A DNA stretch of 60,768 nucleotides from an uncultured Nitrospirales bacterium (GCA_964610095.1 CAZSUT010000004.1:1-60768); one strand, 5' to 3'. Positions 5,517 through 35,790 are shown, counted from the stretch's first letter. Translations and numbers: made by a program. The notes: generated by a model not told the origin, from the letters alone.

Positions 5517-5523
5517 GACTACC

Positions 5524-14847: not shown

Positions 14848-16298
14848 CCGACGATGCGGCCGACAAGGTCGTAGGCGGCGGCGTCGGTGATCTCGACCTT
14901 GACGAAATCGCCGGGCACGGGAAGGGGCGTGTCGGGGTACCCGTTGCTCGTGGTTGCAACGGGTCGTATCGCCTGGGGCGGGCGGGTGAGATTGGCCGTG
15001 CAATCGGTGAGATAGACGACGCCGTCGATCTCGGGGGCTTGGCCTTCGTGGCGGGCCTCCAGCAATAGCTCTGTTTCCTCCGATACGCCGTCCACCATCG
15101 CCTCGATGGTGTGCCCGATAAGCCGACGGCTTTTCTTCAGCGCGATCCCTTCCTGAATCGCGAGCAACGCGGCGCGGCGCTCTTCCATGAGCCGGCGCTC
15201 GATTTTCTTGTCCAGGTCGACGGCGGGCGTGCCCTCTTCGTCCGAGTACAGGAACACGCCGACCCGGTCGAAGTCCATCTCGCGCAGATAGCGCTTGAGC
15301 TCGGTGAAAGCGGCCGTGGTCTCGCCCGGGAAGCCGACGATGAAAGCCGTCCGGAAGGTAAGGCCGGGAATGCGGGCGCGCAGCCGGTCTACAAGCCTCG
15401 TGATGTGGGCCTTGTCGCCCAGACGGTGCATGCGCTTCAGCAGGGCATCGTTGACGTGTTGGAAGGGCATGTCGATGTACTTGGTGATTTTCTCTTCCCC
15501 CGCGTAGAGATCGATCAACTCGTCCGTCACATGTTGGGGATAGAGATAGAACGGCCTGATCCAGCGGAGGCCCTGCACTGTGGCCAGCTCCCGCAACAGG
15601 GCGACCAAGCCGTGTTTCAGGCCGAGGTCCACGCCGTAGTTGATGGTGTCCTGCGAGATGAGGTTGATCTCCTTGACGCCGTCAGCCGTCAGGGCGGTGG
15701 CTTCCGCGACGATGGACTCGATCGACCGGCTCCGCTGCTTCCCACGCATGAGCGGGATGGCGCAGAACGCGCAGTTCCGATTGCAGCCCTCCGCGATCTT
15801 GACGTACGCGGAGTGCGCCTTGCCGAGCCGCAGCCTTGGCGTCAGCTCGTCGTACAGATAGGGCGGCGGGCTGGCCCACACCCGCTGGGTCCGGCGGCCA
15901 AGACCGAGGAGGGAACGGCAGATCTCCGCGATGCGGCCGGTGTCCCCGGTGCCGACGACGCCGTCCAGCTCCGGCAGCGCCTTGAGCAATTCGCCCTGGT
16001 AGCGCTGGGCGAGGCAGCCGGCGGCGATCAGGACTTTGCACGCCCCCGTCTTCTTCAGTGCGCCGTGCTCGATGATGGCATCGATGGACTCCTGTTTGGC
16101 TTCCTCGATGAAGCCGCACGTGTTGATGATAACGACCTCGGCGCGCGCGGGATTGTCAGTCAAGGTGAAGCCGTCCTGCGCCAGCGTGCCCAGCATGACT
16201 TCGCTGTCCACCTGGTTCTTGGAGCAGCCGAGGTTGACGAAGCCGATCGTGGCCGTTCGGGTTCGCGTGCGTGGCGTGCTCAACGTGCGTGAAGCCAT
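14844..16298 (-). CDS. rimO: Ribosomal protein S12 methylthiotransferase
   Basis: NLGCSKNQVDSE, INTCGFIEEAKQES, EGCNRNCAFC, APEIDG plus TRAM domain. Confidence 0.95.
   Translation of the reverse strand: MASRTLSTPRTRTRTATIGFVNLGCSKNQVDSEVMLGTLAQDGFTLTDNPARAEVVIINTCGFIEEAKQESIDAIIEHGALKKTGACKVLIAAGCLAQRYQGELLKALPELDGVVGTGDTGRIAEICRSLLGLGRRTQRVWASPPPYLYDELTPRLRLGKAHSAYVKIAEGCNRNCAFCAIPLMRGKQRSRSIESIVAEATALTADGVKEINLISQDTINYGVDLGLKHGLVALLRELATVQGLRWIRPFYLYPQHVTDELIDLYAGEEKITKYIDMPFQHVNDALLKRMHRLGDKAHITRLVDRLRARIPGLTFRTAFIVGFPGETTAAFTELKRYLREMDFDRVGVFLYSDEEGTPAVDLDKKIERRLMEERRAALLAIQEGIALKKSRRLIGHTIEAMVDGVSEETELLLEARHEGQAPEIDGVVYLTDCTANLTRPPQAIRPVATTSNGYPDTPLPVPGDFVKVEITDAAAYDLVGRIVG
14917..14988 (-). 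repeat. Intragenic repeat element in rimO (72 bp, in frame)
   Basis: CACCCGCCCGCCCCAGGCG + 9-bp hairpin ACCCGTTGC/GCAACGGGT + GACACGCCCCTTCCCGT. Confidence 0.7.
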
Positions 16299-16563
16299 GA
16301 AGCGCAGTGTAGAGGAGCGGGGAATCCGTGTCAAATCAGATCGTCTGCGCACTTTCCCCTTGACTCTGCGCACGCCGGTCTTATAAGATGCGTGATGTCA
16401 TCACCATCATAATCATCATCGAAGCCTGTATTCTGCAGGCTTTCTTCAATCCCCACAGTTAGCGGTCTGTATTCCTATCTGAATACCCGGTGGGGCCCGC
16501 CGGGATGCAGCAGCAAGGTGCGTGCACCGGCTGCTTGGCATGAACCAGGGGCAAAGGGAAGGC

Positions 16564-17253
16564 ATGAACACAACTGGATTCTGCGCGAAGAGTCTCCTGT
16601 TCGCTTCGGTCTTGGCCTTACCGGCCTGCATGACGATTCCCAAGGGACTGGGTGACTATGACGCCGGCTTCAAGGAACGCGGCGTGGCCTCCTGGTACGG
16701 AGGCAGCTTTCATGGCCGGCTGACCGCGAACGGTCAAGTCTACGACCAATTCAAGATGACCGCTGCCCATCGGCTGCTGCCGTTGGGATCCGTGGCGCGC
16801 GTCACCAACCCCGAGAACGGGCGGGAGGTGGAGGTGTTCATCAACGATCGCGGCCCGTTCATCAGGGGCCGCATCATTGACCTCTCGTACGCAGCCGCGG
16901 AACACCTCGGCGCGGTCTATCCCGGCACGCTGCCGGTGGTGGTCCAAGTGCTCCAGATGGGCAAACGGAGCACGGCGACTGGTCGCCTGTTTGAACAGAA
17001 GCCGGAGAAAGGCCCTGGCCTCGAGTTGAGCGTAGCCGCGTTCCTGCGGAGCGGCGAACCTGCTTATGAGACGTCCTGGCTTCGCATGGCGGGCAGCCAG
17101 TTTGCGGTGGGCAGCCGGGGCCCCATGGACGTCCTCCGAGACCAGCGGCGTCCCCGCCGGGGATCCGACACCGCGGTGAGCCCTGAAGAGATGACTCCGG
17201 AAGACCATGCCGAATCCGTCCACGAGGAAATCATCGCGGGAGTCTTCGCCTAA
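16564..17253 (+). CDS. rlpA: Septal ring lytic transglycosylase RlpA family lipoprotein
   Basis: Lipobox-like ALPAC; GVASWYG, LTANG, TAAH, INDRGPF, IIDLSY. Confidence 0.88.
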   Translation: MNTTGFCAKSLLFASVLALPACMTIPKGLGDYDAGFKERGVASWYGGSFHGRLTANGQVYDQFKMTAAHRLLPLGSVARVTNPENGREVEVFINDRGPFIRGRIIDLSYAAAEHLGAVYPGTLPVVVQVLQMGKRSTATGRLFEQKPEKGPGLELSVAAFLRSGEPAYETSWLRMAGSQFAVGSRGPMDVLRDQRRPRRGSDTAVSPEEMTPEDHAESVHEEIIAGVFA

Positions 17254-17260
17254 CTCTCCA

Positions 17261-17290
17261 TTGACACTCCTTTAGACAACCCGATACACT
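17261..17290 (+). promoter_or_regulatory. sigma70 promoter
   Basis: TTGACA-18-TACACT upstream of the small basic protein gene. Confidence 0.5.
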
Positions 17291-17386
17291 CACCCTGCTG
17301 ATTCAACGCTAATTGTTATTCGAGAAAGAATTAGTGAGTCCGGGCGCGACCGTTTAACGATAAACGTCCAATGAGTGGGAGTGCTC

Positions 17387-17611
17387 ATGGCCAAGCAGAA
17401 GAATCCTATCGTGGAGGACATCGCGCGGCTCAAAAAGAAGATCGCCGAACGGAAGGCCAAGACAGACAAAGCGCTGGGCGACGCAGCCCTTCGAGCGTTG
17501 CGTAAGCGTTTGAAGCGGGAGCAGCGCAAGAGGCGAGCACCGGCGCAGCGCTTGGCGCATGCGCAAGGCAAAAAGAAAGACTCTCAACCGGCTGCTGCCG
17601 CCGCAAGTTAA
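17387..17611 (+). CDS. Small Lys/Arg-rich helical hypothetical protein (74 aa)
   Basis: GGGAG RBS; MAKQKNPIVEDIARLKKKIAERK...LRKRLKREQRKRR. Confidence 0.7.
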   Translation: MAKQKNPIVEDIARLKKKIAERKAKTDKALGDAALRALRKRLKREQRKRRAPAQRLAHAQGKKKDSQPAAAAAS

Positions 17612-17619
17612 GGAAGATC

Positions 17620-17670
17620 ACCCCCACCCATCCCTCCCCGCTCGAGGGGGAGGGTGAGGGAGGGGGGGGC
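17620..17670. repeat. REP-like C-rich/G-rich palindromic intergenic element
   Basis: ACCCCCACCCATCCCTCCCC-GCTCGAG-GGGGAGGGTGAGGGAGGGGGGGGC, with an 8-bp stem CCCTCCCC/GGGGAGGG. Confidence 0.6.
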
Positions 17671-17683
17671 AAGAGGTTGCGAG

Positions 17684-18574
17684 ATGGCTGAAGAGACTAG
17701 AAAGATGGAAGACGCCGGTAAGGCGAAGGCCAAGCCCGCCGAGACGACGTCGGCGATGCCCGACGGGTCGGACAAGTCCGAGTACATGCCGATGGGCCAG
17801 GACCAGCCCGTCACCGAGGCCGAGGCCCCGGTAGCGGCTGCGGTCGTGGAGACCAAGGCCCCCGAGGAAAAGGTCAAGGACGAAGTCGAGATCCAGATCG
17901 ACCTCCTAAAGGACAAGGACTGGTACCGCCGGCGGGAAGCCGCGATCACCCTGGGCGAGATGGGCGACGAGCGGGCGATCCCTCATCTCATCGCCGCGCT
18001 GCGCGATTCGGAGTGGAATGTCCGGGAGGCGGCGGAAGACGCGCTGGCTCAGATCGGCTCTCCAGCCGTCGAGCCGCTGCTCAAGGCCCTGCGGGAGTAC
18101 CAGATCCGCAAATTCGTCATCAAGATTATGGGCAGGATCAAGGACGAGCGGGTGCTGGACCCGCTGTTCGCCCAGCTCAGGAATGAAGAGTTCAAGGAAG
18201 CCGCGACCGAGGCCCTGGTCGAGGTGGGCCAGCCGGCCGTCGAGCGGCTCACCGCGGTGCTCAATGACAAAGACAAGAATGTCCGCAAGCACACCGTCAT
18301 CGCGCTCGGCGACATCGGGGTCACAGAGTGCGTGGATCTGCTGATCGAGGCCACCAAGGACGAAGAATGGGAGGTGCGCTTGGCGGCGATCGCGGCGCTC
18401 GATAAGATCGGTGACGAGCGTGGCAAGCCCGCCATCAAGGCGCTCATGAAGGACACGGACTTCGTCGTCCAGATGCGCGCGGAGCGGATCATCTTGGAGT
18501 GGAAGAAGAAGGCGAAAGCCGCGAAAGAGGCCAAGAACGAGGAGGAGACCGAAGAGCGCACAGGAACGGCTTAA
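17684..18574 (+). CDS. HEAT repeat (PBS lyase-like) protein
   Basis: Repeated 'VR..A..ALG.IG...AV..L...L.D' units; charged termini. Confidence 0.88.
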   Translation: MAEETRKMEDAGKAKAKPAETTSAMPDGSDKSEYMPMGQDQPVTEAEAPVAAAVVETKAPEEKVKDEVEIQIDLLKDKDWYRRREAAITLGEMGDERAIPHLIAALRDSEWNVREAAEDALAQIGSPAVEPLLKALREYQIRKFVIKIMGRIKDERVLDPLFAQLRNEEFKEAATEALVEVGQPAVERLTAVLNDKDKNVRKHTVIALGDIGVTECVDLLIEATKDEEWEVRLAAIAALDKIGDERGKPAIKALMKDTDFVVQMRAERIILEWKKKAKAAKEAKNEEETEERTGTA

Positions 18575-19005
18575 CGTGCCGCGAGCAACTGGTCCAACTC
18601 CTTCACGATTTCGTCCACTTTCGTCTGCAGGCCCGGCTTCAGCGCCCGCACGTCGTCCTTCACCGCCGCCACCTTGTCCATCACCTTCTCCAGTTTTTCC
18701 TTGTGCTCCTCGCCGGCCGCTTCCATCGCCTTCTTGAGGGCCTGCCGGGCTTCCCCTAAGCCGGTCGCGGCCTTGCCGTAGTTCTTGTCGAGCAACTCAG
18801 ACTTCGCCTGCACCAGCCGCTCCTTGGCGTTCACGAGGCCGGCGCGCAGGCTCAGATTGCGCTCCAGCGTGCTGGTGCTGGCAAGGACTTGGGTGCCGAG
18901 TTGCTTGGCCTTCTGGAGGAGGGTTTCGGGTCCCTGTCGGCCGATGTAGGCGCCGCAGACGAATGCGAGCACCACGATGGTGAGCATCCCCAGGAATCGC
19001 AGCAT
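18571..19005 (-). CDS. Hypothetical membrane-anchored coiled-coil protein
   Basis: N-terminal TM helix followed by an amphipathic helical region. Confidence 0.7.
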   Translation of the reverse strand: MLRFLGMLTIVVLAFVCGAYIGRQGPETLLQKAKQLGTQVLASTSTLERNLSLRAGLVNAKERLVQAKSELLDKNYGKAATGLGEARQALKKAMEAAGEEHKEKLEKVMDKVAAVKDDVRALKPGLQTKVDEIVKELDQLLAAR

Positions 19006-20379
19006 TTAGTTTTCCCCCTTCCGTTTCCTCTCTGAGATAACGGCGCCGAGGTGACCGGCGGCGAATGCTTGGACGGTCAGGTCCTTGTCCAGCAGGGCGC
19101 GCCTCAGATACGGCATGGCCGTCTTGCCTCCGACCCGTCCTAGCGCCTGGACTGCCGCCACGCGAACCCGCGGGGCGGGGTCGTCGAACGCCTCCAGCGC
19201 GAAGGCCATCGCCCGCTCCGGGGCGCTCCGGGCCATCGCGCCCACCGCCGCGCTCCGCACGCCGAAATCAGGGTCCTTGAGCAACTCCCGCATGACCAGC
19301 GCCGCCTCGCCTTCGCCCAGCTTCATCAGTGCTTCCGCCGCTGCCAGCCTGACGAGCGAGTCGGAGTCCTTCACGGCACCCCACAGGGCGCCGATCGCTG
19401 CCTTGGCGTTGAGCCGGCCGAGGCTGTCTGCGGCGAAGTTGCGGACGTACGGGTCCCGGTCGCTCAACGCGTCCACCAGCGCTGAAATGGCGGAGGTCGC
19501 TCCCAGGTCGCCCAGGGCTCCTGCGGCGAAGGACCGGACCGACGCATCAGGGTCGCTCAGGCCCAGCGTCAGCGCCGAGAGGGTCGTGGGGTCTTTCACT
19601 TTCAGCCGGCCGAGGATGCCCATGGCCGCGCCCCGGACGGCGGGGCTGAAGTCGCGGGCGGCGGTCAGGAACGGCTGTACCGGCTCGGGCTGGTTGAGAC
19701 GGACCAGGGCCTCACGTGCTACCAATTGGACGACGGAGTCCTGGTCTTTCAAGCCGCGCCGCGCCAGCCCGACTATCGCCGGATCCTTGGAAAGGCCAAG
19801 TGTAGAGAACGCTGCGATGCGGACGGTGACATCCGAGTCGGTCACGGCGTCGCGGACGACAGGTAACTTGGCAGCCAGACCAAAGCGGCCAGCGGTCTGG
19901 ATGGCGAAGGTGCGCACCCGCGGCGAGGAGTCGTGCAGGGCCAGATTCAGGGCGGCCAGCGTGTCGGCCGGCCCGAGCTCAGCCAGGGCAGTCGCCGCCG
20001 CGCCGCGCACGATCTCCTGGCCCTGCACAAGCAAGTGCGTGAGCAGGCCGACGCAGATGCGCCGCAGCAGGTCGCCCTTTTCCTTCTCCGCTTGGACAAG
20101 GTGGTCGTGGTCGGCCAGTGCCTCTTCCGGGCGACCCTGATACCCATAGGCCAGGGCGCGCAGCTCGTACGCCGCCGCATGGTCCGGCTGGGCCGCCAGC
20201 AGGGTGTTCAGCAGCCGTACTGCCGTGTCGTAGTCCTTCCGCTCGAAGGCGGCCTGGGCGGCGCGGAAGTCGTTGGTCACGGCGAGGGACGTGTCCTGGA
20301 GTGCGAGCGGGAGGAGACTGACAAGCACGCCCACGGCGAGCGTGAGCGAATGGGCGGGCGTGATCCACATAGGCGACAT
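19006..20379 (-). CDS. Exported TPR + HEAT repeat protein
   Basis: Signal/TM segment, TPR-like AQAAFERKDYDTA...YELRALAY, then about 9 HEAT repeats. Start position uncertain. Confidence 0.8.
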   Translation of the reverse strand: MSPMWITPAHSLTLAVGVLVSLLPLALQDTSLAVTNDFRAAQAAFERKDYDTAVRLLNTLLAAQPDHAAAYELRALAYGYQGRPEEALADHDHLVQAEKEKGDLLRRICVGLLTHLLVQGQEIVRGAAATALAELGPADTLAALNLALHDSSPRVRTFAIQTAGRFGLAAKLPVVRDAVTDSDVTVRIAAFSTLGLSKDPAIVGLARRGLKDQDSVVQLVAREALVRLNQPEPVQPFLTAARDFSPAVRGAAMGILGRLKVKDPTTLSALTLGLSDPDASVRSFAAGALGDLGATSAISALVDALSDRDPYVRNFAADSLGRLNAKAAIGALWGAVKDSDSLVRLAAAEALMKLGEGEAALVMRELLKDPDFGVRSAAVGAMARSAPERAMAFALEAFDDPAPRVRVAAVQALGRVGGKTAMPYLRRALLDKDLTVQAFAAGHLGAVISERKRKGEN

Positions 20380-20474
20380 CTTAACAGGAAGTCCGCCGCG
20401 AAGGAATCGCGGGACGACGGCGAAGGAGTCGGATTGACAGGCGGGGATGGATATGCGACCTTTTGCGATCTCCG

Positions 20475-21161
20475 ATGATTCCGCTGCGGGACGAGAATCC
20501 CACGACGCTGATTCCGGTCGTGACGGTCTCACTGATCGCCTTGAACTGCCTGGTCTTTCTGTATCAGCTCTCGCTGGGCCCTGCTGAGGAACGCTTCATC
20601 CTGTCCTACGCAGCGGTGCCGGCCGAGTGGTTTCTCCCAGGCACGGTGGTGGGCGATCCGGCGGTGCCTTCCGCGTTGACCGTCCTAACCTCGATGTTCC
20701 TGCACGCGGGCCTCATGCATCTGGGCGGCAACATGCTCTACCTCTGGATCTTCGGCAACAACATCGAGGACGTCATGGGCCACGGGCGCTTCATCCTGTT
20801 CTATCTGCTGTGCGGGGTCGCGGCCGTCTTCGGGCATGCTATCACGGCTCCAGACTCGACGGTCCCCATGATCGGGGCCAGCGGAGCAATCTCCGGGGTG
20901 CTGGGGGCCTATCTCCTGTTATTTCCCCGGGTGCGCGTGCTGGTGCTGATCCCGGCTGGCTTCCTCACCCGCGTGGTGCCCGTGCCCGCCGTCGTGGTCC
21001 TGGGATTCTGGATTGTGATTCAGATCATCAACGGTGCCTTCAGTTGGGGAGGCCTCGGCGGCGGGGTCGCGTGGTACGCCCACATCGGTGGGTTTGTAGC
21101 CGGACTGGCGCTGATCAAGGTCTTCCAGCGGCGGCCGGTCAACGACATCTTCCGGTGGTAG
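20475..21161 (+). CDS. Rhomboid family intramembrane serine protease
   Basis: MFLHAG..HLGGNML, GASGAISG, AWYAHIGGF. Confidence 0.93.
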   Translation: MIPLRDENPTTLIPVVTVSLIALNCLVFLYQLSLGPAEERFILSYAAVPAEWFLPGTVVGDPAVPSALTVLTSMFLHAGLMHLGGNMLYLWIFGNNIEDVMGHGRFILFYLLCGVAAVFGHAITAPDSTVPMIGASGAISGVLGAYLLLFPRVRVLVLIPAGFLTRVVPVPAVVVLGFWIVIQIINGAFSWGGLGGGVAWYAHIGGFVAGLALIKVFQRRPVNDIFRW

Positions 21162-21226
21162 CCCTCCGGGGAGGCCTGTGGTAAGATCGGACGGCTTTGT
21201 ACGGACTCATGGTGAAGGAGGATGGT

Positions 21227-22063
21227 ATGCAGGCAGGGCTTTTCGTCATCATCGGACTGATCCTCAGCTGGGGGCTCGGTCCTCCACCCGTAGTCGCCGC
21301 CGACATGAGCCTCGCCGGCAAGATCACCATCTCCGTGACCGGCCGCGAGCAAGCCATTTTCGAGAAGGCCAGCGTGAAGTTCGAGAAACTGCATCCTCGA
21401 GTGCGGGCGCGGTTTGCAGCGACGGACGGCGGGGACCTGCTGGCGGCCCTGGCCGACGGCTCGGCGGACATCGCTGTCTTAGGGAGAACCCTCAAGCCCG
21501 AAGAGAAGGACTGGACAGGCACCACCGTCGGGTGGGAAGGGATCGCCATTATGGTCAATGCATCCAATCGAGTGCAGGAGATCACCCTCAAACAGGTCAC
21601 CGATCTCTTCAGCGGGGCGGCCAAGACCTGGGATGAGCTCGGGGGGCTCGAAGCTAGGATCACGGTCGTCAACCGGGAAGAGGGCAAGGGGGTGCGGCCC
21701 TATCTGGAGCAGATCTTGAACTTGGGCGGGAAGTTTGTGAACGGGAAAGGCGTGGTGGAACCCGACAAGGAGGCCATCCGGTTCGTCTCCGGCAATTTGA
21801 ACGCGGTGTCCTACATCAACCTGAGCATGGGCGTCGGCAACGTCAGCGTGGGCGTGCCCATCCGCCTGCTCGCGCTCAATAAAGTCGATCCGGAGCCGGC
21901 GAACGTGTCCTCCGGGGCCTATCCGCTCCGCCGGCCGATCGTGGTGGTGACGAAGACGTCGCCTTCACCCGTCGTCAAGGCGTTCGTGGACTTCATGCTC
22001 GACAAGGAAGGGCAGAAGACCGTCCAGGAGGAAGATTTCGTGCCGCTGGTCGTGACGAAGTAA
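21227..22063 (+). CDS. PstS/PBP-superfamily substrate-binding protein
   Basis: Signal peptide; DGIA-like WEGIAIMVNASN, ITLKQVTDLFSG..KTW, YPLRRP, VKAFVDFML. Confidence 0.78.
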   Translation: MQAGLFVIIGLILSWGLGPPPVVAADMSLAGKITISVTGREQAIFEKASVKFEKLHPRVRARFAATDGGDLLAALADGSADIAVLGRTLKPEEKDWTGTTVGWEGIAIMVNASNRVQEITLKQVTDLFSGAAKTWDELGGLEARITVVNREEGKGVRPYLEQILNLGGKFVNGKGVVEPDKEAIRFVSGNLNAVSYINLSMGVGNVSVGVPIRLLALNKVDPEPANVSSGAYPLRRPIVVVTKTSPSPVVKAFVDFMLDKEGQKTVQEEDFVPLVVTK

Positions 22064-22071
22064 CTGCACAG

Positions 22072-23982: not shown

Positions 23983-23987
23983 AGAGC

Positions 23988-25781: not shown

Positions 25782-27211
25782 GCCTTTTTGACGGCCTCGA
25801 GCAGTACGTGAAGGAAAGCCGACCGCGCTTTGAGGAGTGGCTGGGGCGGCTGGTGGAGATCCCGACGGTCAGCATGGATCCCGCGCGTCGCAACGATATG
25901 CGACGGGGCGCGGAGGTTGCGGTGGACTGCCTCGCGGCCTTGGGCGCGCAGGCGGCGATTGTCGAGACCAGAGGCCATCCGCTGGTCGTCGGCGGGTGGA
26001 TGCAGGACCCGGCCTGGCCGACCGTGGCCGTCTACAACCATCTCGACGTGCAGCCGGCGATGGAGCCAGAATGGACGCGCGAGCCGTTCAAATTCACGGT
26101 CGAGGGCGAGCACTACTATGGACGCGGCACCACCGACGACAAGGGGCCTGCGCTCACTGCGCTGCTGGCGGCCCGCTACGCGGTTGGGCGCGGCGTGCGG
26201 CTCAATATCCAGTTCGTCTGGGAGCTGGAGGAGGAAATCGGCAGTCCACACTTTGCGGAAGGCTTAGCGAAAACGTTTGATTCCACCCACTCGCCCCAGG
26301 CGCGCCAAGACGCGCCCCTTCCCGTTTTACGCAGACCAGACTCTGTGGTTGTCTCGGACACAATCTGGCTGGCGGGCGGCCGTCCGGCGGCGCCCTATGG
26401 GCTGCGGGGCAATGTGGCTGTGCGGCTGATCCTGGAGACCGCCAGGCGGGAGGCGCATTCCGGCTTGACCGGTGGCGCGGCCCGCAATCCTCTCGCGGAG
26501 CTGGCTGCCGTGCTCGCGGCTTGCGTGAACGCGAAGACCGGACGGGTCACCATCCCCAGGTTTTACAAGTCAGTCAGACCGCTGGGCAAGACGGATCGGG
26601 CGCAGTTTCTGAAGTCGGGCTTTCAGGTGAAGGCCTTTGCCGTCGCGCACCAGTTGACGAAATTGCGCGCGCGGGATCGCCTGGAAGTCATGAAGCGCCT
26701 GTGGGCCGAGCCCACGTTTGAGGTGCACGGTTTCGTCGGAGGATACACGGGGCCAGGGGTCAAAACCTCCATTCCGCCGCGCGCAGAGGCGAAGGTCAGC
26801 ATGCGGCTGGTGCCGGATCAGGACCCGGCCGCCATCTTCCGGATCTTCCGCGCCTATGTCCGCAAGCTCAACCCAGACGTCCATGTGGAAGCGCACGGCA
26901 TGCTGCGACCCTACGTGGCCGATCTGGGCGGGCCGCATGCGGAGGCTGTGCGGAAGGCGCTGCGCTTCGGTTTCGGCAAGGAGCCGGCCTTCATCCGCGA
27001 GGGCGGGTCCATCGGGGCGGTCGTGACCATGGCGGAGCGGTGGCAGGCGCCCGTCATGTTCCTGGGCTTGAGTCTGCCGGAGCACGGTTACCACGCGCCC
27101 AACGAGCGTTTCGACTGGGGGCAGGCGTCCGGGGGGATGAAAGCGTTCGTCGGATATTTCGATGAAGTCAGCAGGATCACCGTCAAGACCGAAGGGAGCA
27201 GGAGAGCATGA
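25778..27211 (+). CDS. M20/M25/M40 family metallopeptidase (dipeptidase-like)
   Basis: YNHLDVQP, GRGTTDDKG, EEEIGS, GGSIG, HAPNE. Confidence 0.9.
   Translation: MSLFDGLEQYVKESRPRFEEWLGRLVEIPTVSMDPARRNDMRRGAEVAVDCLAALGAQAAIVETRGHPLVVGGWMQDPAWPTVAVYNHLDVQPAMEPEWTREPFKFTVEGEHYYGRGTTDDKGPALTALLAARYAVGRGVRLNIQFVWELEEEIGSPHFAEGLAKTFDSTHSPQARQDAPLPVLRRPDSVVVSDTIWLAGGRPAAPYGLRGNVAVRLILETARREAHSGLTGGAARNPLAELAAVLAACVNAKTGRVTIPRFYKSVRPLGKTDRAQFLKSGFQVKAFAVAHQLTKLRARDRLEVMKRLWAEPTFEVHGFVGGYTGPGVKTSIPPRAEAKVSMRLVPDQDPAAIFRIFRAYVRKLNPDVHVEAHGMLRPYVADLGGPHAEAVRKALRFGFGKEPAFIREGGSIGAVVTMAERWQAPVMFLGLSLPEHGYHAPNERFDWGQASGGMKAFVGYFDEVSRITVKTEGSRRA
26284..26325 (+). repeat. Intragenic repeat element in the M20 peptidase (42 bp, in frame)
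   Basis: CACCCACTCGCCCCAGGCG + CGCCAA + GACGCGCCCCTTCCCGT, with the same end motifs as the rimO element. Confidence 0.7.
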
Positions 27212-28237: not shown

Positions 28238-28253
28238 TGGCACGCCCTGTGCT
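28238..28253 (+). promoter_or_regulatory. sigma54 (-24/-12) promoter of the hybrid kinase gene
   Basis: TGGCACGCCCTGTGCT, ~70 bp upstream of ATG 28322. Confidence 0.65.
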
Positions 28254-28321
28254 TATGTCACAAGTTAGCTCAGGATGTCCTGTCCTCCGATAGGTCCACC
28301 TGCCTGTGGAGGGATGCGAGT

Positions 28322-29932
28322 ATGGGAACGGCGTTGCACATACTTCATCTTGAAGACAATCCAGATGATCAGGAATTGGTTCGCTTGACTCTTGTCAAAG
28401 AAGGCATGGCGTGCGAGCTCGCGTGCGTCGAGACCCACGACTACTTCCTCGCCGCTCTGAAGCAGGGCGGGTGGGACATCATCCTGGCCGACTACACGCT
28501 CCCTTCCTACGATGGATTGTCTGCGTTGAGACTTGTGCGGGAATTGTGCCCTGAAGTCCCCTTCATCTTTATTTCCGGCACCATCGGAGAGGACGCAGCG
28601 ATCGCTTGTCTGAAGGCCGGCGCCACAGACTACGTGCTGAAACACCACCTCGCACGACTGGCCCATGCCGTGCGTCGTGCCTTGCGCGAGGCTGAGGAAC
28701 GGAAGGAACGCAAGCTGGCGGACGAGGACAGAACCAGACTGGAAGAGCAGCTTCGCCAGGCTCACAAAATGGAGGCGATCGGACGTCTTGCCGGAGGCAT
28801 CGCGCATGACTTCAACAACCTGCTGACGGTCATCAACGGCTACAGTGAACTCGTGTTCAACAGCCTCGGAGCCAATCTCCTTGCTCGCAAGAACGTCGAG
28901 CAGATCAAGAAAGCGGGTCGGCGGGCCGCAACCTTGACACGCCAGCTTCTGGCCTTCAGCCGCCGGCAGGTTCTGCAACTGAAAGTGCTGGACCTGAATG
29001 CCGTGGTGACGAACTTTGAGGCCATGCTCCAGCCGCTGATCGGCGAGGACATCCTTCTGGAGGCTGTCCTGCAACCTGGATTGGGCCTCGTCAAGGTGGA
29101 TCCAGGGCAGATCGAACAGATCATCTTGAACCTGACCGTCAATGCCCGCGATGCGATGCCGGAAGGAGGCAAATTGACGATCGAGACTGCGAACGTCGAA
29201 CTGGACGAAGCGTACGCCCGCAGGCATGTCTCAGTCCGGCCCGGACCTTACGTGATGCTGGCGATCAGCGATAACGGGTGCGGGATGGACGCGGAGACCC
29301 AGGCCCGCATCTTCGAGCCATTCTTCACGACCAAAGAACACGGAAAGGGGACCGGTCTTGGCCTGGCCACGGTCTACGGCATTGTCAAACAGAGTGGCGG
29401 CAACATATGGGTCTATAGCGAGCCCGGAAAAGGGACGACGTTCAAAATCTACCTGCCTCGCGTCGAGGGCGTCGCCGAGGGGAGCGAGCCGGCCCATCCT
29501 CGTTCCTCGATACTCCGTGGCTCAGAAACGATTCTTCTCGTGGAAGACGAGGACATGGTTCGAAGCTTGGCGCGGGAGATCCTTGAAGCGCATGGCTATG
29601 CCGTGTCGGAAGCGCGTGATAGCACGGAGGCCCTGCTCATCTGCCATACGCATTCCAGTTCGATCCATCTGCTGGTGACCGATGTTGTGATGCCGGGGTT
29701 GAGCGGCCGTGAACTGGCTGCGCGAATGGGGACTATTCATCCAGAGACAAAGGTGCTTTACATGTCCGGCTACACTGATGACGCAATCGTCCGCCATGGG
29801 GTGTTGAACGCAGGTTTGGCGTTTCTCCAAAAGCCATTCTCAGCGAATGCCTTCTTGTGCAAGGTAAGGGAGGTGCTCGACTCGCCGTCAAGCCATACGG
29901 TCTACGGCAGGATGACGGTCTCCTCGGAATAG
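28322..29932 (+). CDS. Hybrid histidine kinase, REC-HisKA-HATPase-REC (CckA-type), no sensor domain
   Basis: LHLEDN..D, DIILADY; [13 protein letters not shown]; NARDAM, DNGCGM, KGTGLGL; LLVEDE, DVVMP. Confidence 0.92.
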
Positions 29933-30630
29933 CCGAGATCCTTGAGGGTGCTTTCCAAGGCCTCCATCATCGGTGGGGGGCCGCAGAGGAAGACGACCGT
30001 GTCAGGACCTGGCGGTGGGAGACGCTGGCGCAGAATGTCTACGGCGACCCGCCCGACACCCATTGTCCAGTCCGCGGGTGGCTGTTCGAGCACGTGATAG
30101 CAGTGGAAGTTTGGATGTTCGCGCACGTCCCGATCCCATTCCTCCCGGAAGATGATGTCCGCCTCGGTCTTGTTTGCGAAGACTAGAAACAGTTCAACGT
30201 CAAGCCGCTTCATCAGGATCCAGCGGATGATGGCAATCATCGGTGTGATGCCGGTCCCGCCGGCGACGAAGCCGACCTTCTTGGCCATCCCGTCCACCCA
30301 GTGCCCACCCATGTTCGGCCCGCTCATCAGTACGGTGTCGCCTACCTTCCGCTCGTGCACGTACTTGGAGATGACGCCGGTCTCATAACGCTTGATCGTC
30401 AAGTCGAAATAGCCCACGGTGTCGGGCAGCGACGATGGTGTATAGGGCCGCTTAACGGCCTTGCCGTTGATCGTAGCGTGCACGTACAGGTGGTCGCCCG
30501 GCACCATGTCCAGCGTGGCGTTCTCCGGCAGGGCGAAGCGGAAGGTCTTGGTGTCGTGCGTTTCGACGCTGATCGCCGTGATAGGGTAGGGCGCCGGCGT
30601 CTTCGTCTTGATGCGCGTGATGTCTGCCAT
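29902..30630 (-). CDS. FAD/NAD(P)H oxidoreductase (cytochrome b5 reductase-like)
   Basis: KRPYTP, GVISKY, AGGTGITPM, VFLCGPPPMM. Confidence 0.9.
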   Translation of the reverse strand: MADITRIKTKTPAPYPITAISVETHDTKTFRFALPENATLDMVPGDHLYVHATINGKAVKRPYTPSSLPDTVGYFDLTIKRYETGVISKYVHERKVGDTVLMSGPNMGGHWVDGMAKKVGFVAGGTGITPMIAIIRWILMKRLDVELFLVFANKTEADIIFREEWDRDVREHPNFHCYHVLEQPPADWTMGVGRVAVDILRQRLPPPGPDTVVFLCGPPPMMEALESTLKDLGYSEETVILP

Positions 30631-30736
30631 GGTGTACGGATCATAGCCTGCGCGTCTGGGTCTGGCAACTCGTGCCGTCAACTGAGAGTCCGGTTGATTG
30701 ACACCTCACCTCTCGCGGGATATTCTGTCCGGACCA

Positions 30737-31612
30737 ATGCCTACGCCGATACGTGAGACCGCGCCGTTGCTGATGCCGCGCTCGCTGGTCGGGCCGCTCA
30801 TGCAGCTGTACGACTATCCGCACCCGCGCAAGCCTGGCCGGGTGATCCGCGGCTACGACCGCCACCATGCGCTTCGCACCGCCCGCATGTGCGCAGCGGT
30901 CGCGCGGCGGCTGGGTCACTCCGATGAACGAATGGAGCGGTACCAGATCGCGTGCCTGCTGCATGATTTGGGACGGGCGGGCCTCGATCAGGAGCTGTTC
31001 GGCAGGATCTGGTCCTGGGCCCGGGCGAACGGCATTCCCACAAGGCCCCGTGAATGGCGCGCGGTCCATCCGTCCACTCCGTACGGCCGGGAGACGGAGG
31101 CGTTTCTGGAGCGCTATGCCCAGGACCTCACCAGGCGCGGCGTGCCGCTCGATTCCTGGACCACCGAGCAGGTGGAGATGCGTCTGGGCTACGCGCGCCG
31201 TCTGGCCCGGCAGTTGCGCGTAGCCAGGCCCAAGCTAACCCGGCTCGGCGTGAAGTGGGCGCCGTGGATGGAGCGCGTCATGCTCTACTATTACTATCCC
31301 GAGAAGCTGAATGGGTCGGCGCGGTGGGTCCGGGAGCTGGCCGAGGTCTTGGTGGCGTGCGAGCAGTTCGAGGCCTACAGCAACCGCCAGCGCGGGCGCG
31401 ACTACTACACGCGTAAGAAGGAGAGTTTGCCTGAGGCCTTCGCCTACCTCGACAAGCTGCAGGTGGAGGGCATCCTGAGCCCGCGTGTGGTGCAGACGGT
31501 GCGCGAGCTGGCCGCGGCGGGCGCGTTCGATCAACTGCTTGCCGAGTCACGCGGCGCCGCGCTGCCGCGTCGGGAGCTCCGGTACTTGCGCAGCCTGAAG
31601 CGGAATGGCTGA
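30737..31612 (+). CDS. HD-domain-like hypothetical protein
   Basis: HHALRTA...ACLLHDLGR, and a distal ACEQFEAYSN resembling the 'AD.FDA' HD motif. Confidence 0.65.
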   Translation: MPTPIRETAPLLMPRSLVGPLMQLYDYPHPRKPGRVIRGYDRHHALRTARMCAAVARRLGHSDERMERYQIACLLHDLGRAGLDQELFGRIWSWARANGIPTRPREWRAVHPSTPYGRETEAFLERYAQDLTRRGVPLDSWTTEQVEMRLGYARRLARQLRVARPKLTRLGVKWAPWMERVMLYYYYPEKLNGSARWVRELAEVLVACEQFEAYSNRQRGRDYYTRKKESLPEAFAYLDKLQVEGILSPRVVQTVRELAAAGAFDQLLAESRGAALPRRELRYLRSLKRNG

Positions 31613-32036
31613 GATGAGCGTCAAGACCATCCCGATCCGGCTGGACATGCGCGGCAACACCCAGATCGAGAACATCACGAAGCGGGTCCAGGAAGCGGTG
31701 GCCGAAACCGGCCTGAAAGCCGGGATCGCCACGGTCTTCATCCGGCACACTACCGCCTCTGTGATGCTCATCGAGGACGAGCCTGGCATCCGCGCCGACA
31801 CCAAGGCGATCTGGGACCGCCTGATCCCGGACGACGCGCGCTGGGAGCACAACACCCGCAATCCTGGCGAGGACAACGCCCACAGCCACCTGCGGGGGCA
31901 TCTGCAAGGACCGTCGGTGACCATCCCCTTCACCGACGGCGCGCTGCTGCTCGGCACGTGGCAACAGATCGTCGTGGTGGATTTCGACACGCGGCCCAGA
32001 AAGCGCGACCTCGTGGTCCAGGTGGTCGGCGAGTAG
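31605..32036 (+). CDS. yjbQ: YjbQ/UPF0047 family (secondary thiamine-phosphate synthase-like)
   Basis: HTTAS, NAHSHL, LLLGTWQ, DFD; start may be 31614. Confidence 0.88.
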   Translation: MAEMSVKTIPIRLDMRGNTQIENITKRVQEAVAETGLKAGIATVFIRHTTASVMLIEDEPGIRADTKAIWDRLIPDDARWEHNTRNPGEDNAHSHLRGHLQGPSVTIPFTDGALLLGTWQQIVVVDFDTRPRKRDLVVQVVGE

Positions 32037-32082
32037 CCGTATTCGTCCTTCCCCCTCTATCCTTTTCATCGTCGTACTGGCG

Positions 32083-32805
32083 GTGGTGCTGCTCGTCTGG
32101 CCGGTCGCGGGCGAGCAGGACTGCGAGGTCCACATCAACGACCTGGGGCGCAGCTTTCCTCTCGACAGAATGGAGCGCCATGCCCTGTGCCGCTTGGCCG
32201 GCGTCGTCAACGATGCCACGACCAGCCACGTCAACCCGCCAGTCCTGACGCCGATCCGCAAGCCGGTCTACGACTTTTTGCTGGACCACGTGGTCCTGAC
32301 CGCCGCGCTGGTCCGCACGCTGGGAATTGGCCAATACACCGTCGAGCGGGTCGGGGCGCAGGGTTTCCAGGGGGACGACGGGCTCGGGTCTGAGGCGCTG
32401 GTCGATCTGCTCAACCAAAACTCGACGCAGCGGGTCTACCACATCCAGGGCACGCATCACGGCAACGTCCTGATGATTTCCGGGGAAGCGATCGTCATGC
32501 TCACCTCGCAGACTCGGACCGGCAGCGACGGGAAGGAGTACGTCGAGACGCGGATGGTGGTCTATTCGCGGCTGGACAACCCCATGCTGGCGACGCTGGT
32601 CAAGGTGCTGCAGCCATTCCTGCGTGGGGTGATCAACGGGAAATTAGCCGGCCCCTTTCTTGCCGTCCACCGGCTCGGCGAGCTGATTGCCGCCAATCCC
32701 GAGAAGGTCTACCGGCAGGCCGAAACCATTTCGGAACTTGACAAGACTGAGCTCGATGCCCTGCGCGTCCTGCTCTTACCATCCCTTACTCCTCCACCCC
32801 CTTGA
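32083..32805 (+). CDS. Hypothetical exported protein
   Basis: 240-aa ORF with coding-like codon usage and a short hydrophobic N-terminus; start uncertain. Confidence 0.6.
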   Translation: MVLLVWPVAGEQDCEVHINDLGRSFPLDRMERHALCRLAGVVNDATTSHVNPPVLTPIRKPVYDFLLDHVVLTAALVRTLGIGQYTVERVGAQGFQGDDGLGSEALVDLLNQNSTQRVYHIQGTHHGNVLMISGEAIVMLTSQTRTGSDGKEYVETRMVVYSRLDNPMLATLVKVLQPFLRGVINGKLAGPFLAVHRLGELIAANPEKVYRQAETISELDKTELDALRVLLLPSLTPPPP

Positions 32806-33994
32806 CGATCTTCCCACTCTGGATCACGTACCTCAGTCGGGCAGACTTTTCCAGCAGGGCGATGTCGTCCAACGGATTGCCCTTTACCACAATCAGGTCG
32901 GCCTGCTTGCCGGCTTCGACCGTGCCGATCTCCTGCTCGAGGCCGAGCAGGGTCGCGGCCGAGCGGGTGGCGGCTTCGATCGCCCGCATCGGCGTGAGCC
33001 CGAGCTGTACCATCCGGCGCAGCTCCTGCGCGTTGCGCCCGTGGTGGTTGAAGGGCGTGCCGGCGTCGGTGCCCATGGCGATCCGCACGCCGGCCTTGAC
33101 CGCCTTCCGGAAGTTCTTCCGCTGCGCCTCCGCCATCCCGGCGCATTTCTCGAGCGCGTAGTCCGGCATCCCGCCCTGCTTGCCGTGCTCGAATCCGGAC
33201 TGGATGGCCGAGAGGGTCGGGACGAGAAAGGTCCGGCGCTCGAGGAACAGGTCCAGCGCCTCGTCATCCAGCAAGGTCCCGTGCTCGATGGAGTGGACAC
33301 CGGCGCGGAGGGCGTTCTTCATGCCTTCGGCGCCGTGCGCGTGGGCCGCGACGCGCCGGCCCGCGCGCACGGCCTCTTCGACGCCGGCCCGCAGCTCTTC
33401 CATCGTGAGTTGCGCCGTGCCAGGGGAGGTCCCTGGCGTCAGCACGCCGCCCGTCGCGATGAATTTGATGACGTCCGCGCCCGCGCGAATCTGCTCGGCC
33501 ACCGCCTTGACGATCTCGTCCGGCCCGTCGGCCTGGCGGCCGATGAACCAGGCGTGCCCGCCTGGCATGCAGATCACCAGGCCCGCGTTGAGCGTGCGGG
33601 GACCCGGGATGATCCCGGCCTTGATCGCGCGGGTGACCGAGATCGAGATGTGCTCGCGGGAGCCGACGTCCCGGACCGTCGTGATCCCGGCTTCCAGAGT
33701 CGCTCGCGCGTGGGTGACGGCTTTGATGGCGGTGGCGGTCGGATCGTCCTGTTCGAGCGTTCGGATCGCATCCGGACCGGCGTCCAGGCAGTAGTGAACG
33801 TGGCAATCAATCAAGCCGGGGAGAAGGGCGAGGCCATGGCCTTCGATCACCTGTGAGCCACGCGGGACCTTGACCCGGCCGTCGGAGCCGACCGCGGCGA
33901 TCCGATCACCGTCCACCACGACTGTGGCCCGCTCCAGCTTGGCGCCGGTGCCGTCAATAAGCAGCACCCGGCGGATCGCGAGCGGCGCGCTCAC
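32786..33994 (-). CDS. Metal-dependent amidohydrolase (Xaa-Pro dipeptidase/imidazolonepropionase-like)
   Basis: PGLIDCHVH, DVIKFIATGG, AAHAHG, IEHG, MGTDAG; GTG start overlapping the bcp stop. Confidence 0.9.
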   Translation of the reverse strand: MSAPLAIRRVLLIDGTGAKLERATVVVDGDRIAAVGSDGRVKVPRGSQVIEGHGLALLPGLIDCHVHYCLDAGPDAIRTLEQDDPTATAIKAVTHARATLEAGITTVRDVGSREHISISVTRAIKAGIIPGPRTLNAGLVICMPGGHAWFIGRQADGPDEIVKAVAEQIRAGADVIKFIATGGVLTPGTSPGTAQLTMEELRAGVEEAVRAGRRVAAHAHGAEGMKNALRAGVHSIEHGTLLDDEALDLFLERRTFLVPTLSAIQSGFEHGKQGGMPDYALEKCAGMAEAQRKNFRKAVKAGVRIAMGTDAGTPFNHHGRNAQELRRMVQLGLTPMRAIEAATRSAATLLGLEQEIGTVEAGKQADLIVVKGNPLDDIALLEKSARLRYVIQSGKIVKGVEE

Positions 33995-34458
33995 CCCTTC
34001 AGCGCGGCCTGGACCTCGCCGACGTGGCCGTCCACTTTCACCTTGCGGAAGATCGCCTTGAGCTTGCCGGTTTCGTCGATGATGAACGTGCTGCGCTCGA
34101 TTCCCCAGTAGGTTTTCCCGTACATGTTCTTCTTCTTGTAGACCCCGTAGGCCTTCGAGACCGTGCCGTCCCCATCGCACAACAGCGTGAAGGGGAGGCT
34201 GTATTTCTTGATGAACTTTTGATGGGACTCGGCGTCGTCCATGCTGACGCCCAGCACGACGGTGTTGGCCTTCTCGATCGCGCTCAAGGAGTCCCGAAAG
34301 CCGCACGCCTCCTTGGTGCATCCCGGCGTGTCGTCCTTGGGGTAGAAGTAGAGCACCAACTGTTTGCCTTTGAGGCTCTTCAGACTGACCGTCTTGCCAT
34401 CCTGGTCGGGCAGGGAGAAGTCGGGGGGCTTGTCGCCTATCTGCAACTCATCGGCCAT
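33991..34458 (-). CDS. bcp: Thioredoxin-dependent peroxiredoxin BCP
   Basis: YFYPKDDTPGCTKEAC, ERSTFIID. Confidence 0.95.
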   Translation of the reverse strand: MADELQIGDKPPDFSLPDQDGKTVSLKSLKGKQLVLYFYPKDDTPGCTKEACGFRDSLSAIEKANTVVLGVSMDDAESHQKFIKKYSLPFTLLCDGDGTVSKAYGVYKKKNMYGKTYWGIERSTFIIDETGKLKAIFRKVKVDGHVGEVQAALKG

Positions 34459-34524
34459 GGTACCCCCTTAAGCAAAGCAGGTGGTGGTCTCCATTGCACC
34501 ACCGCCCGGGTGAATCAACCGAGA

Positions 34525-35790
34525 TCATGTTGCTGTGGCGTAGGCCTGCAGGGCGGCGGTCAGGGCCGCGCCGCTCTGCTTGGTCCACCCATGTTGACCG
34601 AAGATTTGTTCCAGTGTGGACAGCAGCGTCACCACGTGTTCATGCCGCGAGGATTCGCCCATCAATCCGATGCGCCACACCTGGCCGGCGAGTGGGCCGA
34701 GCCCGCCGCCGATTTCGATACCGAATTCGGCAAGCAGCGTCTTGCGCACCGCCGCTTCGTCCACGCCGGCGGGTACGCGCACGCAGTTCAACGTAGGCAG
34801 CCGGTGTCCGGTCTGTGCCTGGGGCTCGCACCCCAGCGTCGCCAGCCCGGCCATGAGCGCTGCGCTGTTGCGGTAGTGGCGGTCAAACCGGGCCTCCAAC
34901 CCTTCCTCCACCACGAGGCGCAGGGCTTCACGCAGCGCATAGATCATGCTGATAGGCGCCGTATGGTGGTAGGCGCGTTTTCCTTCTGCCCAGTAGTCCG
35001 CGATCATCGACAGGTCGAGGTACCAGCTCTGCACCTTCGTCTTGCGCCCCTTGACCACCTCCAGGGCGCGTCGGCTCAAGGTCAGCGGGGCGAGTCCAGG
35101 CGGACAGCTTAGGCATTTCTGTGTCCCGCTGTAGCAGGCGTCGATCCCCCACGCGTCCACCCGCACGGGCACGCCGCCGAGGGACGTGACGGCGTCCACG
35201 ACAAGGAGCGCCTCGTACTGCCGGCAGAGCGGGCCTATCTCCTCCATCGGCTGATGGGCGCCGGTGGAGGTCTCCGCATGGACCAGGGCGACCACTTTGA
35301 TGGAGCCCGCCTGCTTGAGCGCGTCCTCCAAGCGGTGCGGGTCAATGATCTGTCCCCACGGGACATCGAGTGTGACTGCCTTGCCGCCCGCGCGTCCCAC
35401 GATGTCGGCCATGCGCGTACCGAATACGCCGTTTACGCCCACGATCACGGTGTCGCCTGGCTCGATCAGGTTCACCAGCGTGGCCTCCATGCCGGCCGAG
35501 CCGGTGCCGGACACGGCGATGGTGAAGGGGTTGTCCGTCTGGAAGACCGTGCGGAGCAGGGCCTGCACCTCGTTCATGATCGTGAGGAATTCAGGGTCCA
35601 GATGGCCGAGCAGCGGCGTGCTCATCGCGCGGAGCACGCGGGGATGGACGAGGCTGGGACCAGGACCGAGCAGGAGCCGAGGAGAAGGAACCAGTTCGGA
35701 CACGGCCTTCGGGACAGAAGCCTGTCCCGACAGGCTTGGGGTGGGCGGGTGCGACGACGCCTGGGGCGGGGGGATGTAACCGAGCGACAT
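34525..35790 (-). CDS. Alanine-glyoxylate/serine-pyruvate aminotransferase (class V PLP)
   Basis: LLLGPGPS, HAETSTG, VDAVTS, SGTQKCL, WRIGLMG; Pro-rich N-terminal extension. Confidence 0.92.
   Translation of the reverse strand: MSLGYIPPPQASSHPPTPSLSGQASVPKAVSELVPSPRLLLGPGPSLVHPRVLRAMSTPLLGHLDPEFLTIMNEVQALLRTVFQTDNPFTIAVSGTGSAGMEATLVNLIEPGDTVIVGVNGVFGTRMADIVGRAGGKAVTLDVPWGQIIDPHRLEDALKQAGSIKVVALVHAETSTGAHQPMEEIGPLCRQYEALLVVDAVTSLGGVPVRVDAWGIDACYSGTQKCLSCPPGLAPLTLSRRALEVVKGRKTKVQSWYLDLSMIADYWAEGKRAYHHTAPISMIYALREALRLVVEEGLEARFDRHYRNSAALMAGLATLGCEPQAQTGHRLPTLNCVRVPAGVDEAAVRKTLLAEFGIEIGGGLGPLAGQVWRIGLMGESSRHEHVVTLLSTLEQIFGQHGWTKQSGAALTAALQAYATAT
35708..35776 (-). repeat. Intragenic repeat element forming the aminotransferase N-terminus
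   Basis: Two variants of the left motif (CATCCCCCCGCCCCAGGCG, CACCCGCCCACCCCAAGCC) followed by overlapping hairpins AAGCCTGT/ACAGGCTT and TCGGGACAG/CTGTCCCGA. Confidence 0.55.

Follow-up and report, generated by a model that had tools for sequence, protein, structure and literature searches.

Selfish repeats that colonise genes in frame are best known from Rickettsia, and repetitive extragenic palindromic (REP) sequences have been reported to do so in a few other species. The Rickettsia palindromic elements (RPEs), which Ogata et al. reportedly described in 2000 as RPE-1 to RPE-8, are AT-rich and ~100-150 bp long. Nitrospirales is the order that holds the main nitrite oxidisers of soils and waters. 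Here, we analysed a 60,768-nt stretch of DNA from an uncultured Nitrospirales bacterium (GCA_964610095.1, CAZSUT010000004.1:1-60768; hereafter the window), in which three unrelated genes, encoding RimO, an M20 peptidase and a class-V aminotransferase, carry copies of one short hairpin-bearing DNA repeat.

RPEs are short palindromic repeats, present in tens of copies, many of them in frame in unrelated and often essential genes (PMC3733652); they also lie between genes, vary among orthologs and come without an identified transposase, and the Nitrospirales repeat resembles them in all these respects. Intragenic REPs of the GTAG/CGTC kind are known from Opitutus terrae, Thauera and R. conorii (Di Nocera et al. 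2013, PMC3733652). Full-text literature searches turned up no earlier description of the present repeat family in Nitrospira. The repeat is dispersed and modular, differs in presence between close relatives, is read in frame, and has neither terminal inverted repeats (TIRs) nor target-site duplications (TSDs). We consider it likely that the window segments belong to a family of DNA repeats specific to this lineage of uncultured Nitrospirales, whose members are very small and non-autonomous and bear a hairpin.

Three copies in the window and their empty counterparts

A first-pass annotation, made from the window sequence, had described a mobile repeat inserted in frame in these three genes. All three copies were present with the motifs and hairpins it had listed. 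They are given below with their unit types (S, A or B).

14917-14988, minus strand: copy 1, A-type element with a 72-nt core, in frame within the rimO open reading frame (ORF)
14970-14988, minus strand: left end motif of copy 1, CACCCGCCCGCCCCAGGCG
14939-14964, minus strand: cargo hairpin of copy 1, perfect 9-bp stem ACCCGTTGC / GCAACGGGT with an 8-nt loop
14917-14933, minus strand: right end motif of copy 1, GACACGCCCCTTCCCGT
26282-26326, plus strand: copy 2, S-type element in frame within the M20 peptidase gene (net insertion; 42-nt core at 26284-26325)
26299-26304 and 26311-26316, plus strand: 6-bp hairpin of copy 2, GGCGCG / CGCGCC
35704-35776, minus strand: copy 3, decayed B-type element, four codons after the ATG (35790-35788) of the class-V aminotransferase ORF
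35776-35758 and 35751-35733, minus strand: mutated left motif and second left-type motif of copy 3
35737-35718, minus strand: 7-bp hairpin of copy 3, AAGCCTG/CAGGCTT

Copy 1 is composed of CACCCGCCCGCCCCAGGCG-ATACG-ACCCGTTGC-AACCACGA-GCAACGGGT-ACCCC-GACACGCCCCTTCCCGT, and the corresponding RimO insert peptide, (L)TRPPQAIRPVATTSNGYPDTPLPV, is flanked by ...YLTDCTAN and PGDFVKVEI. Copy 2 reads CACCCACTCGCCCCAGGCG-CGCCAA-GACGCGCCCCTTCCCGT, with both end motifs present, and its peptide STHSPQARQDAPLPV forms residues 169-183 of the M20 protein. Both copies lie in sense orientation and in a common frame, TRPPQA...PLPV. Their 72-nt and 42-nt cores had been delimited correctly, but the net extra sequence in the M20 gene is 45 nt; in rimO, tandem arrays elsewhere in the family, rather than an empty allele, point to a 75-nt unit that with its three junction bases would span ~14916-14990. 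The two left motifs and the hairpin reported at the aminotransferase N-terminus also stood, but the extent of copy 3 was redrawn to 35704-35776, and we assign it as a decayed B element that lost its right motif, which a 12-nt in-frame deletion cut down to GCC.

Chance does not account for the 17-nt right motif: at ≤3 mismatches the window holds four matches where 0.65 were expected, and no shuffle out of 100 attained four. An nhmmer profile search detected no further copies in the window. No Rfam family matched at any window copy, the sole window match at the gathering threshold being a tRNA gene at 1294-1367 (minus strand).

We also considered a longer element, suggested by a 30-nt similarity between the rimO flank (14979-15008) and 35802-35831, and rejected it because the latter segment is the conserved sigma-70-like promoter of the aminotransferase gene and is unchanged in an empty allele (L245). 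A TATAAT box lies there at 35797-35802 (minus strand), 6 nt upstream of the aminotransferase ATG, with TTCACA ~16 nt further upstream, and this arrangement is kept in empty and filled alleles (window, L245 and L129). The position of the TATAAT box suggests that the aminotransferase mRNA may be leaderless.

For M20, RimO and the aminotransferase alike, the segments are missing from most orthologs, even from some that are 93-97% identical, which bears out the view that the segments are extra sequence. By the homologs of these three proteins the window falls among uncultured Nitrospirales; its M20 protein is only ~61% identical to that of a named Nitrospira sp. At its insertion site the window and P0002 carry S, and P0003 (95% amino acid identity) and most others are empty; the same position holds A in L001 and B in L002, and S, A and B are each nested in clades of empty alleles. 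At the DNA level, the empty allele runs from GAT directly into TTACGC, and the window has 45 additional nucleotides there.

The rimO site is variable as well. Most RimO orthologs are 459 residues long and empty; in others one position is occupied by a single S, A or B, by the arrays S+A or S+S+S+B, or by remnants. The site is filled in lineages 70-100% identical, with drifted S peptides at 70-75%. P0138, which carries B, and P0391, which is empty, differ at 13 of 459 residues (97% amino acid identity); in rimO DNA the site accounts for a difference of exactly 90 nt, and the flanks otherwise match closely.

Most aminotransferase orthologs begin M-x3-VSELVPSPRLL, and a B element lies between the start and VSEL in the window protein, P0241 and L129; a filled and an empty protein share 93% identity. 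The 12-nt deletion in copy 3 being in frame suggests that this region is translated, although the protein might instead start at a GTG just past the element. Clusters at 90% protein identity hold filled and empty members together. At other sites, ribH carries S, B or B+B, and the miaB-like, cusA-like, nuoM and MBL sites carry S or B at one position. One loop of a radical-SAM gene contains B in antisense in L131 and S in sense in L191, at slightly different codons, and the opposite orientations indicate independent insertions.

Proteins gain 15-30 residues from an insert, with Pro, Gly, Ala and Arg abundant among them. Surface loops had been expected to receive the inserts, and those of M20 and RimO agreed with this. 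In the AlphaFold model of the M20 protein (mean predicted local distance difference test, pLDDT, 77.7), residues 169-183 are coil with pLDDT <50 between helix 157-168 and strand 189-192, and the insert is predicted to be a disordered loop. T. maritima RimO (2QGQ/4JC0) has six residues between ...DGVVFV and GDFLEV, compared with 32 in the window protein, so that its loop is 26 residues shorter, and the RimO insert sits between two segments of the TRAM domain. In RimO proteins that carry an insert, the precomputed Pfam match to TRAM is often weakened or absent.

Architecture, distribution and coding census of the family

A left-motif scan with one genome per species returned at least 118 stretches. 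Among the left-motif matches listed, a right motif lay ≤110 nt from the left motif in 24 of 30 from Nitrospirales and in 0 of 88 from other taxa, and most of the remaining Nitrospirales matches were decayed elements. Scanning metagenomes for the left motif, a gap and the right motif yielded at least 120 further loci. The repeat family is restricted to Nitrospirales. From 1.04 Mb of Nitrospirales genome and metagenome contigs we recovered 175 units, some intergenic, in both orientations and in six frames. The first-pass annotation had named two outcomes that would speak against a mobile repeat, segments present in all orthologs and no copies beyond chance, and the data contradict both. Across 0.94 Mb of ascertained loci, only four additional clusters were well preserved, which as a rough estimate suggests tens of copies per genome, not hundreds; the window alone has three copies in 61 kb.

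The family is built from the following unit types.

Type S: core 42 nt, 111 units
Type B: core 87 nt, 40 units
Type A: core 72 nt, 7 units
Type C: core 62 nt, 6 units

Types S, A and B have the fixed ends CACCCRCCCRCCCCAGGCG (left, 19 nt) and GACGCGCCCCTTCCCGT (right, 17 nt) in common and differ in their centres, as anticipated in the proposal of variable cargo between fixed ends. The centre of S is a 6-bp hairpin built partly from the ends, and that of A is a separate small hairpin module, CCCGTTGC...GCAACGGGTACCC. B consists of a left motif, a 6-nt spacer and a C unit, and its centre is thus a second S-like unit. The C unit is itself S-like, with CACCCRCCCRCCCC, a GAGCCTG/CAGGCTC stem with loop CCAAGA, a CTGTCCCGT-like sequence and then the right motif. 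Both the A cargo hairpin and the C unit also occur alone. A comparison of 39 distinct B/C sequences showed that the five pairs of the stem core were essentially invariant, the outer two pairs covaried (G-C/A-T and A-T/C-G) and the loop was variable. DNA fold z-scores of the hairpins ranged from -2.4 to -4.1.

Units also form direct tandem arrays with 3-nt junctions (S+A, S+S+S+B and B+B), and the S+S+S+B array of L217 rimO has a 45-nt period. Once the three junction bases are included, the additions are 45 nt for S, 75 nt for A and 90 nt for B, each divisible by three, and at least 52 of 53 S variants have no stop codon in any of the six frames; copies in permissive loops or termini are consequently read through. 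C would add 65 nt, and all classified C sites are intergenic. In L139 (~233-380) and L148 (~325-520), unrelated ORFs end right after an element with the common tail A(A/V)QGEANRPR(I/T)LFQ(K/T)QRGTN-stop, which suggests a further repeat module adjoining S/B units.

Many intergenic copies are nested in a palindromic element resembling a MITE (miniature inverted-repeat transposable element), which has CAGGATGCTSAAAA as its TIR and GTAC...GTAC in the middle. In the basal form the element measures 124 nt, with the following copies.

L056:6833-6957, 124-nt MITE-like copy
L202:9312-9436, 124-nt MITE-like copy
L224:13011-13135, 124-nt MITE-like copy
L158:1008-1134, 124-nt MITE-like copy

Larger copies of ~169, ~215 and ~260 nt correspond to one, two and three S-sized inserts, which occupy three positions: the left arm, the central loop and the right arm. 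These size classes are another contrast of filled and empty states, and they too show S to be an insertable unit of its own. The arms of the MITE-like element pair with several G-T wobbles on one strand only. No full-length insertion sequence (IS) with this TIR was found within 4 kb, and the TIR did not occur above chance in the window. The A cargo hairpin (CCCRTTGC-N8-11-GCAAYGGGTACCC) was also seen alone, without S ends, in MITE-like centres (L149:429-616, L198:796-1015 and L240:1839-2058), and appears to be a third small insertable module.

We classified sites by a codon log-odds model trained on long ORFs together with open-frame tests. Among 129 non-redundant sites, the 111 with ≥200 nt of flank on both sides formed the census set. 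Internal in-frame sites, with ≥60 coding codons on each side, made up 19 of the 111; a further 22 lay in the translated C-terminal part of an ORF, ~20 were near possible starts, and 50 were intergenic or unassigned. The 41 translated sites (~37%) used frames s1 (15), a1 (12), s0 (6), a0 (3), a2 (3) and s2 (2), where s1 gives TRPPQA...PLP and a1 gives REGARLGAPGAGG, and 23 were sense and 18 antisense to their genes. Since all six frames are used, the common frame, which holds for copies 1 and 2, is a bias across the family and not a rule.

When 20 host ORFs were scanned with Pfam, 19 had family matches, and the domains run across the inserts. The hosts include lumazine synthase (DMRL synthase, ribH), an AcrB-family pump, DnaE, DnaX, a MiaB-like methylthiotransferase, an FAD monooxygenase, a PstS-like binding protein, an M28 peptidase, a PUA/SAM methyltransferase, an MBL hydrolase, two alpha/beta hydrolases, a BNR protein and two radical-SAM proteins, and NuoM, RibD and RecO carry the element at their C-terminal end.

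Two further observations concern gene ends and gene integrity. With A as the base before the element, the complement of the left flank (W-T-Y-N, where W is A or T and Y is C or T) reads TAA or TGA, so the element supplies a stop codon to genes entering in the a0 frame; this is seen at the ribD 3' ends in L162:3-824 and L193, where the RibD C-terminus reads ...TGRGASRRAWGGRV-stop. In L049 (~5330-5560), an alpha/beta-hydrolase gene contains a B element's right half, on whose two sides the coding segment CLALKCPVPSFPxMLNSEFG is duplicated in different frames, and the locus would be either a disrupted gene or a misassembly.

Origin of the copies and competing explanations

We searched the junctions for traces of the insertion process. 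S, A and B have no TIRs, their ends being non-complementary. The check for target duplication proposed in the first-pass annotation gave a negative result: no consistent TSD pattern emerged across the 111 sites, and in three pairs of empty and filled alleles the junction is ambiguous by no more than 1-2 nt. Single-site repeats of 2-4 nt (TTCA in L049, GTCT in L051) were rejected as TSDs because they formed no consistent pattern across the 111 sites. Upstream of the first unit, position -4 was A/T in 100, -3 was T in 107 and -2 was C/T in 106 of the 111 sites. The empty alleles of M20 and the aminotransferase already contain 'AT' or 'ATTA', which is not clear in the rimO pair.

New copies would probably be made by a single-strand DNA process of the 'peel-and-paste' type that recognises the hairpin, with an enzyme like IS200/IS605 transposases or the REP-associated tyrosine transposases (RAYTs) acting in trans; a HUH/Y1-type mobilisation step specifically is a tentative suggestion that we hold to be less likely than not. 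Insertion would occur without target duplication, beside W-T-Y followed by one base and then the element. At occupied sites, the common ends would permit cargo switching (S<->A<->B) and the growth or shrinkage of arrays, via template switching, slippage or gene conversion between copies, and selection would purge copies that disrupt proteins. A bolder account, which we regard as possible though rather doubtful, is that these are self-nesting micro-elements adapted to coding sequence and still active in soil and freshwater Nitrospirales. They would recolonise surface loops of core genes (rimO, ribH, miaB-like, dnaE, dnaX, nuoM) and swap cargo in place, via an unrecognised HUH-type enzyme or hairpin- or quadruplex-induced template switching, without inverted ends or target duplication.

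Several points weigh against the interpretation of the family as mobile repeats read in frame. Conservation of the end motifs is partly set by the search patterns, and translation of the inserts would follow from frame conservation, the one line of evidence for it. The T conserved at -3 is missing from internal array junctions (GCT, CCT, GGT, TCA), which makes growth of arrays by duplication probable. The ends of an insertion can be placed only to within 1-3 nt, since filled and empty alleles always have different codons just upstream. Over the 6-9 nt before the insert, filled and empty alleles diverge more than in other flank sequence; we attributed this to intrinsic loop variability, and allele import by recombination would look alike. 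The right junction is identical at each orthologous site, and this fits repeated targeted insertion no better than a single old insertion with later conversion. Finally, the search for RAYT or IS200/IS605 transposases suggested at first pass was negative: tblastn with E. coli RAYT (sequence confirmed against 4ER8) and IS608 TnpA (an unverified query sequence) gave nothing at E<0.4 in the 1.04 Mb of element-bearing contigs, a search of low sensitivity on fragments that cover no complete genome. The colonisation of coding sequence by a mobile repeat is backed by the presence/absence patterns and the in-frame sites, but that search found no mobilising enzyme, and the word 'mobile' therefore rests on the presence/absence patterns.

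The main rival explanation, which we think has a real but minority chance of being correct, is that each site received one ancient insertion and that later diversity came from recombination only, the element no longer transposing or never having done so. Differences between S, A and B would then arise by gene conversion or template switching, and presence or absence by allele exchange between strains and slippage deletions. This would account for the identical right junction in all filled alleles of a gene (in rimO, ...CCCGTG joined to CCCGG), for a rimO site filled across 70-100% identity with decayed S peptides in distant lineages, for the unusually divergent 6-9 nt upstream, as an imported allele tract would give, for the fixed 45-nt period of the L217 array and for the lack of any transposase in 1.04 Mb. 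However, some insertion process is needed to place copies in ~20 unrelated host genes and at three positions of the MITE-like element. Recombination also sits poorly with the opposite orientations at slightly different codons of the radical-SAM loop in two lineages, with the family-wide W-T-Y upstream signature, and with M20 alleles S, A and B each lying within clades of empty alleles.

It is unlikely that the repeat is retained for a useful nucleic-acid structure and that its spread came second to this function, the structure being either a G-quadruplex with a hairpin loop on its G-rich strand (GGGAAGGGG-hairpin-GGGGCGGGCGGG) or a hairpin serving mRNA stability, pausing or processing. Five C/G tracts are conserved around the variable centre, the S complement has a G4Hunter score of 1.33, stems are conserved and loops variable, and the one-strand G-T wobble pairing of the MITE-like arms hints at RNA or single-strand structure. 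Yet the translated copies show no orientation preference to genes (23 sense versus 18 antisense), close strains do without the element at every site examined, and the tract conservation is partly a product of the search patterns. How well each position of the C-tracts is conserved might have spoken for a quadruplex or i-motif, but we dropped this argument because the search patterns had fixed those positions.

We give very little credence to a protein-level explanation, in which PPQA...PLPV is a selected Pro-rich linker or motif, maintained by descent or convergence, and not selfish DNA. The s1 frame that encodes it is the commonest (15 of 41 translated copies), and the frame is kept even in decayed copy 3 through its in-frame 12-nt deletion. 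What is conserved, however, is the nucleotide sequence, which is read in both orientations and six frames to give unrelated peptides such as EREGARLGAPGAGGC, HPPAPGAPRRAPSR and TGRGASWRAWGGRV; moreover, 50 of the 111 sites fall in the intergenic class, the host proteins are unrelated, close orthologs lack the segment, and the insert is predicted to be disordered coil. Least credible of all is an assembly or binning artefact: repeats would have caused chimeric joins in metagenome assemblies and so produced apparent in-frame insertions. All data come from metagenome-assembled genomes or metagenome contigs and the duplicated segment in L049 is suspicious, but genes continue in frame on both sides in many independent assemblies (JGI, ENA, NCBI, Logan), inserts of 42-90 nt are shorter than the reads or k-mers in typical misjoins, and orthologous sites hold sequence-diverged inserts.

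Elsewhere in the window, an intergenic direct repeat (47248-47413 and 51382-51547, 81% identical) lies upstream of an ORF in each case. Each copy has two TGCCGATAT-N-TCGGCA palindromes and, ~95 nt later, TGGAAT-N5-TTGCC, similar to a sigma-54 -24/-12 promoter; the two look like paralogous sigma-54 promoters with common enhancer-binding sites.

Comparison with known repeat systems

Like REP/BIME/REPIN-RAYT systems, the Nitrospirales elements have a GC-rich hairpin core of 20-40 nt with conserved single-stranded flanks and occur in clusters (PMC3733652; Bertels & Rainey 2011, PMC3116915). REPs likewise reside, occasionally to frequently, in frame in coding sequence, with genes of replication and repair among the hosts (here DnaE and DnaX), and have been proposed to transpose without TIRs. 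In contrast to REPs, the present elements have no GTAG/CGTC tag at the stem foot; their stem, GGCGCG/CGCGCC, is preceded by CCCCA, and the sole CGTC in the S/A/B consensus spans the stem/loop boundary of the complement. Their units are arranged in direct tandem and not as inverted doublets, ~37% of sites are translated whereas REPs are mostly extragenic, and tblastn of the 1.04 Mb of contigs found no RAYT beside any copy.

Members of the IS200/IS605 family and their non-autonomous derivatives (PATEs) resemble the elements in having a hairpin, which here would serve recognition, in the absence of TIRs and target duplication, and in a short sequence conserved directly 5' of the element, here a candidate target (PMC6006769), and the seamless empty alleles are compatible with precise excision as in IS200/IS605. 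Those transposons, however, have distinct left and right subterminal hairpins and a defined target of 4-5 nt, whereas here there is one central hairpin and a W-T-Y preference. Bacterial MITEs that lie in frame within genes, such as the enterobacterial RU/ERIC elements, are also small non-autonomous repeats, which can have open frames and provide new peptide segments (PMC2759123, PMC2229807, PMC10969869). Classical MITEs have TIRs and TSDs and measure 70-300 bp; S, A and B have neither TIRs nor TSDs, and only the 124-nt host element, which has a TIR, is MITE-like. The elements therefore belong neither with REPs, by tag and by lack of inverted doublets, nor with classical MITEs.

Short hairpin DNAs that move without inverted repeats or target duplications have in this family a tractable case, and its turnover can be followed unusually clearly: among proteins 84-97% identical, a single codon position may be empty or hold S, A, B or an array. 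The inserts are a source of protein length variation that weakens domain detection, as for the TRAM Pfam match in RimO, and they offer a strain-level marker for metagenomic population studies.

Compared with RPEs, the Nitrospirales units are GC-rich, smaller (42-90 nt), modular, nested and in direct tandem, and homology is implausible by composition and size. The hosts differ as well, free-living bacteria of a nitrifier lineage here and obligate intracellular Rickettsia there, and type switching at orthologous sites is a feature of the present family. As a functional class, the elements match RPE-like coding repeats: they are palindromic, lie in frame in unrelated genes and are absent in orthologs. 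The same phenomenon thus now extends to free-living Nitrospirales, with far smaller elements. If the tentative account of self-nesting, active micro-elements were true, the family would be, outside Rickettsia, the most extensive system of the RPE-like kind, and would amount to a natural experiment in protein loop gain.

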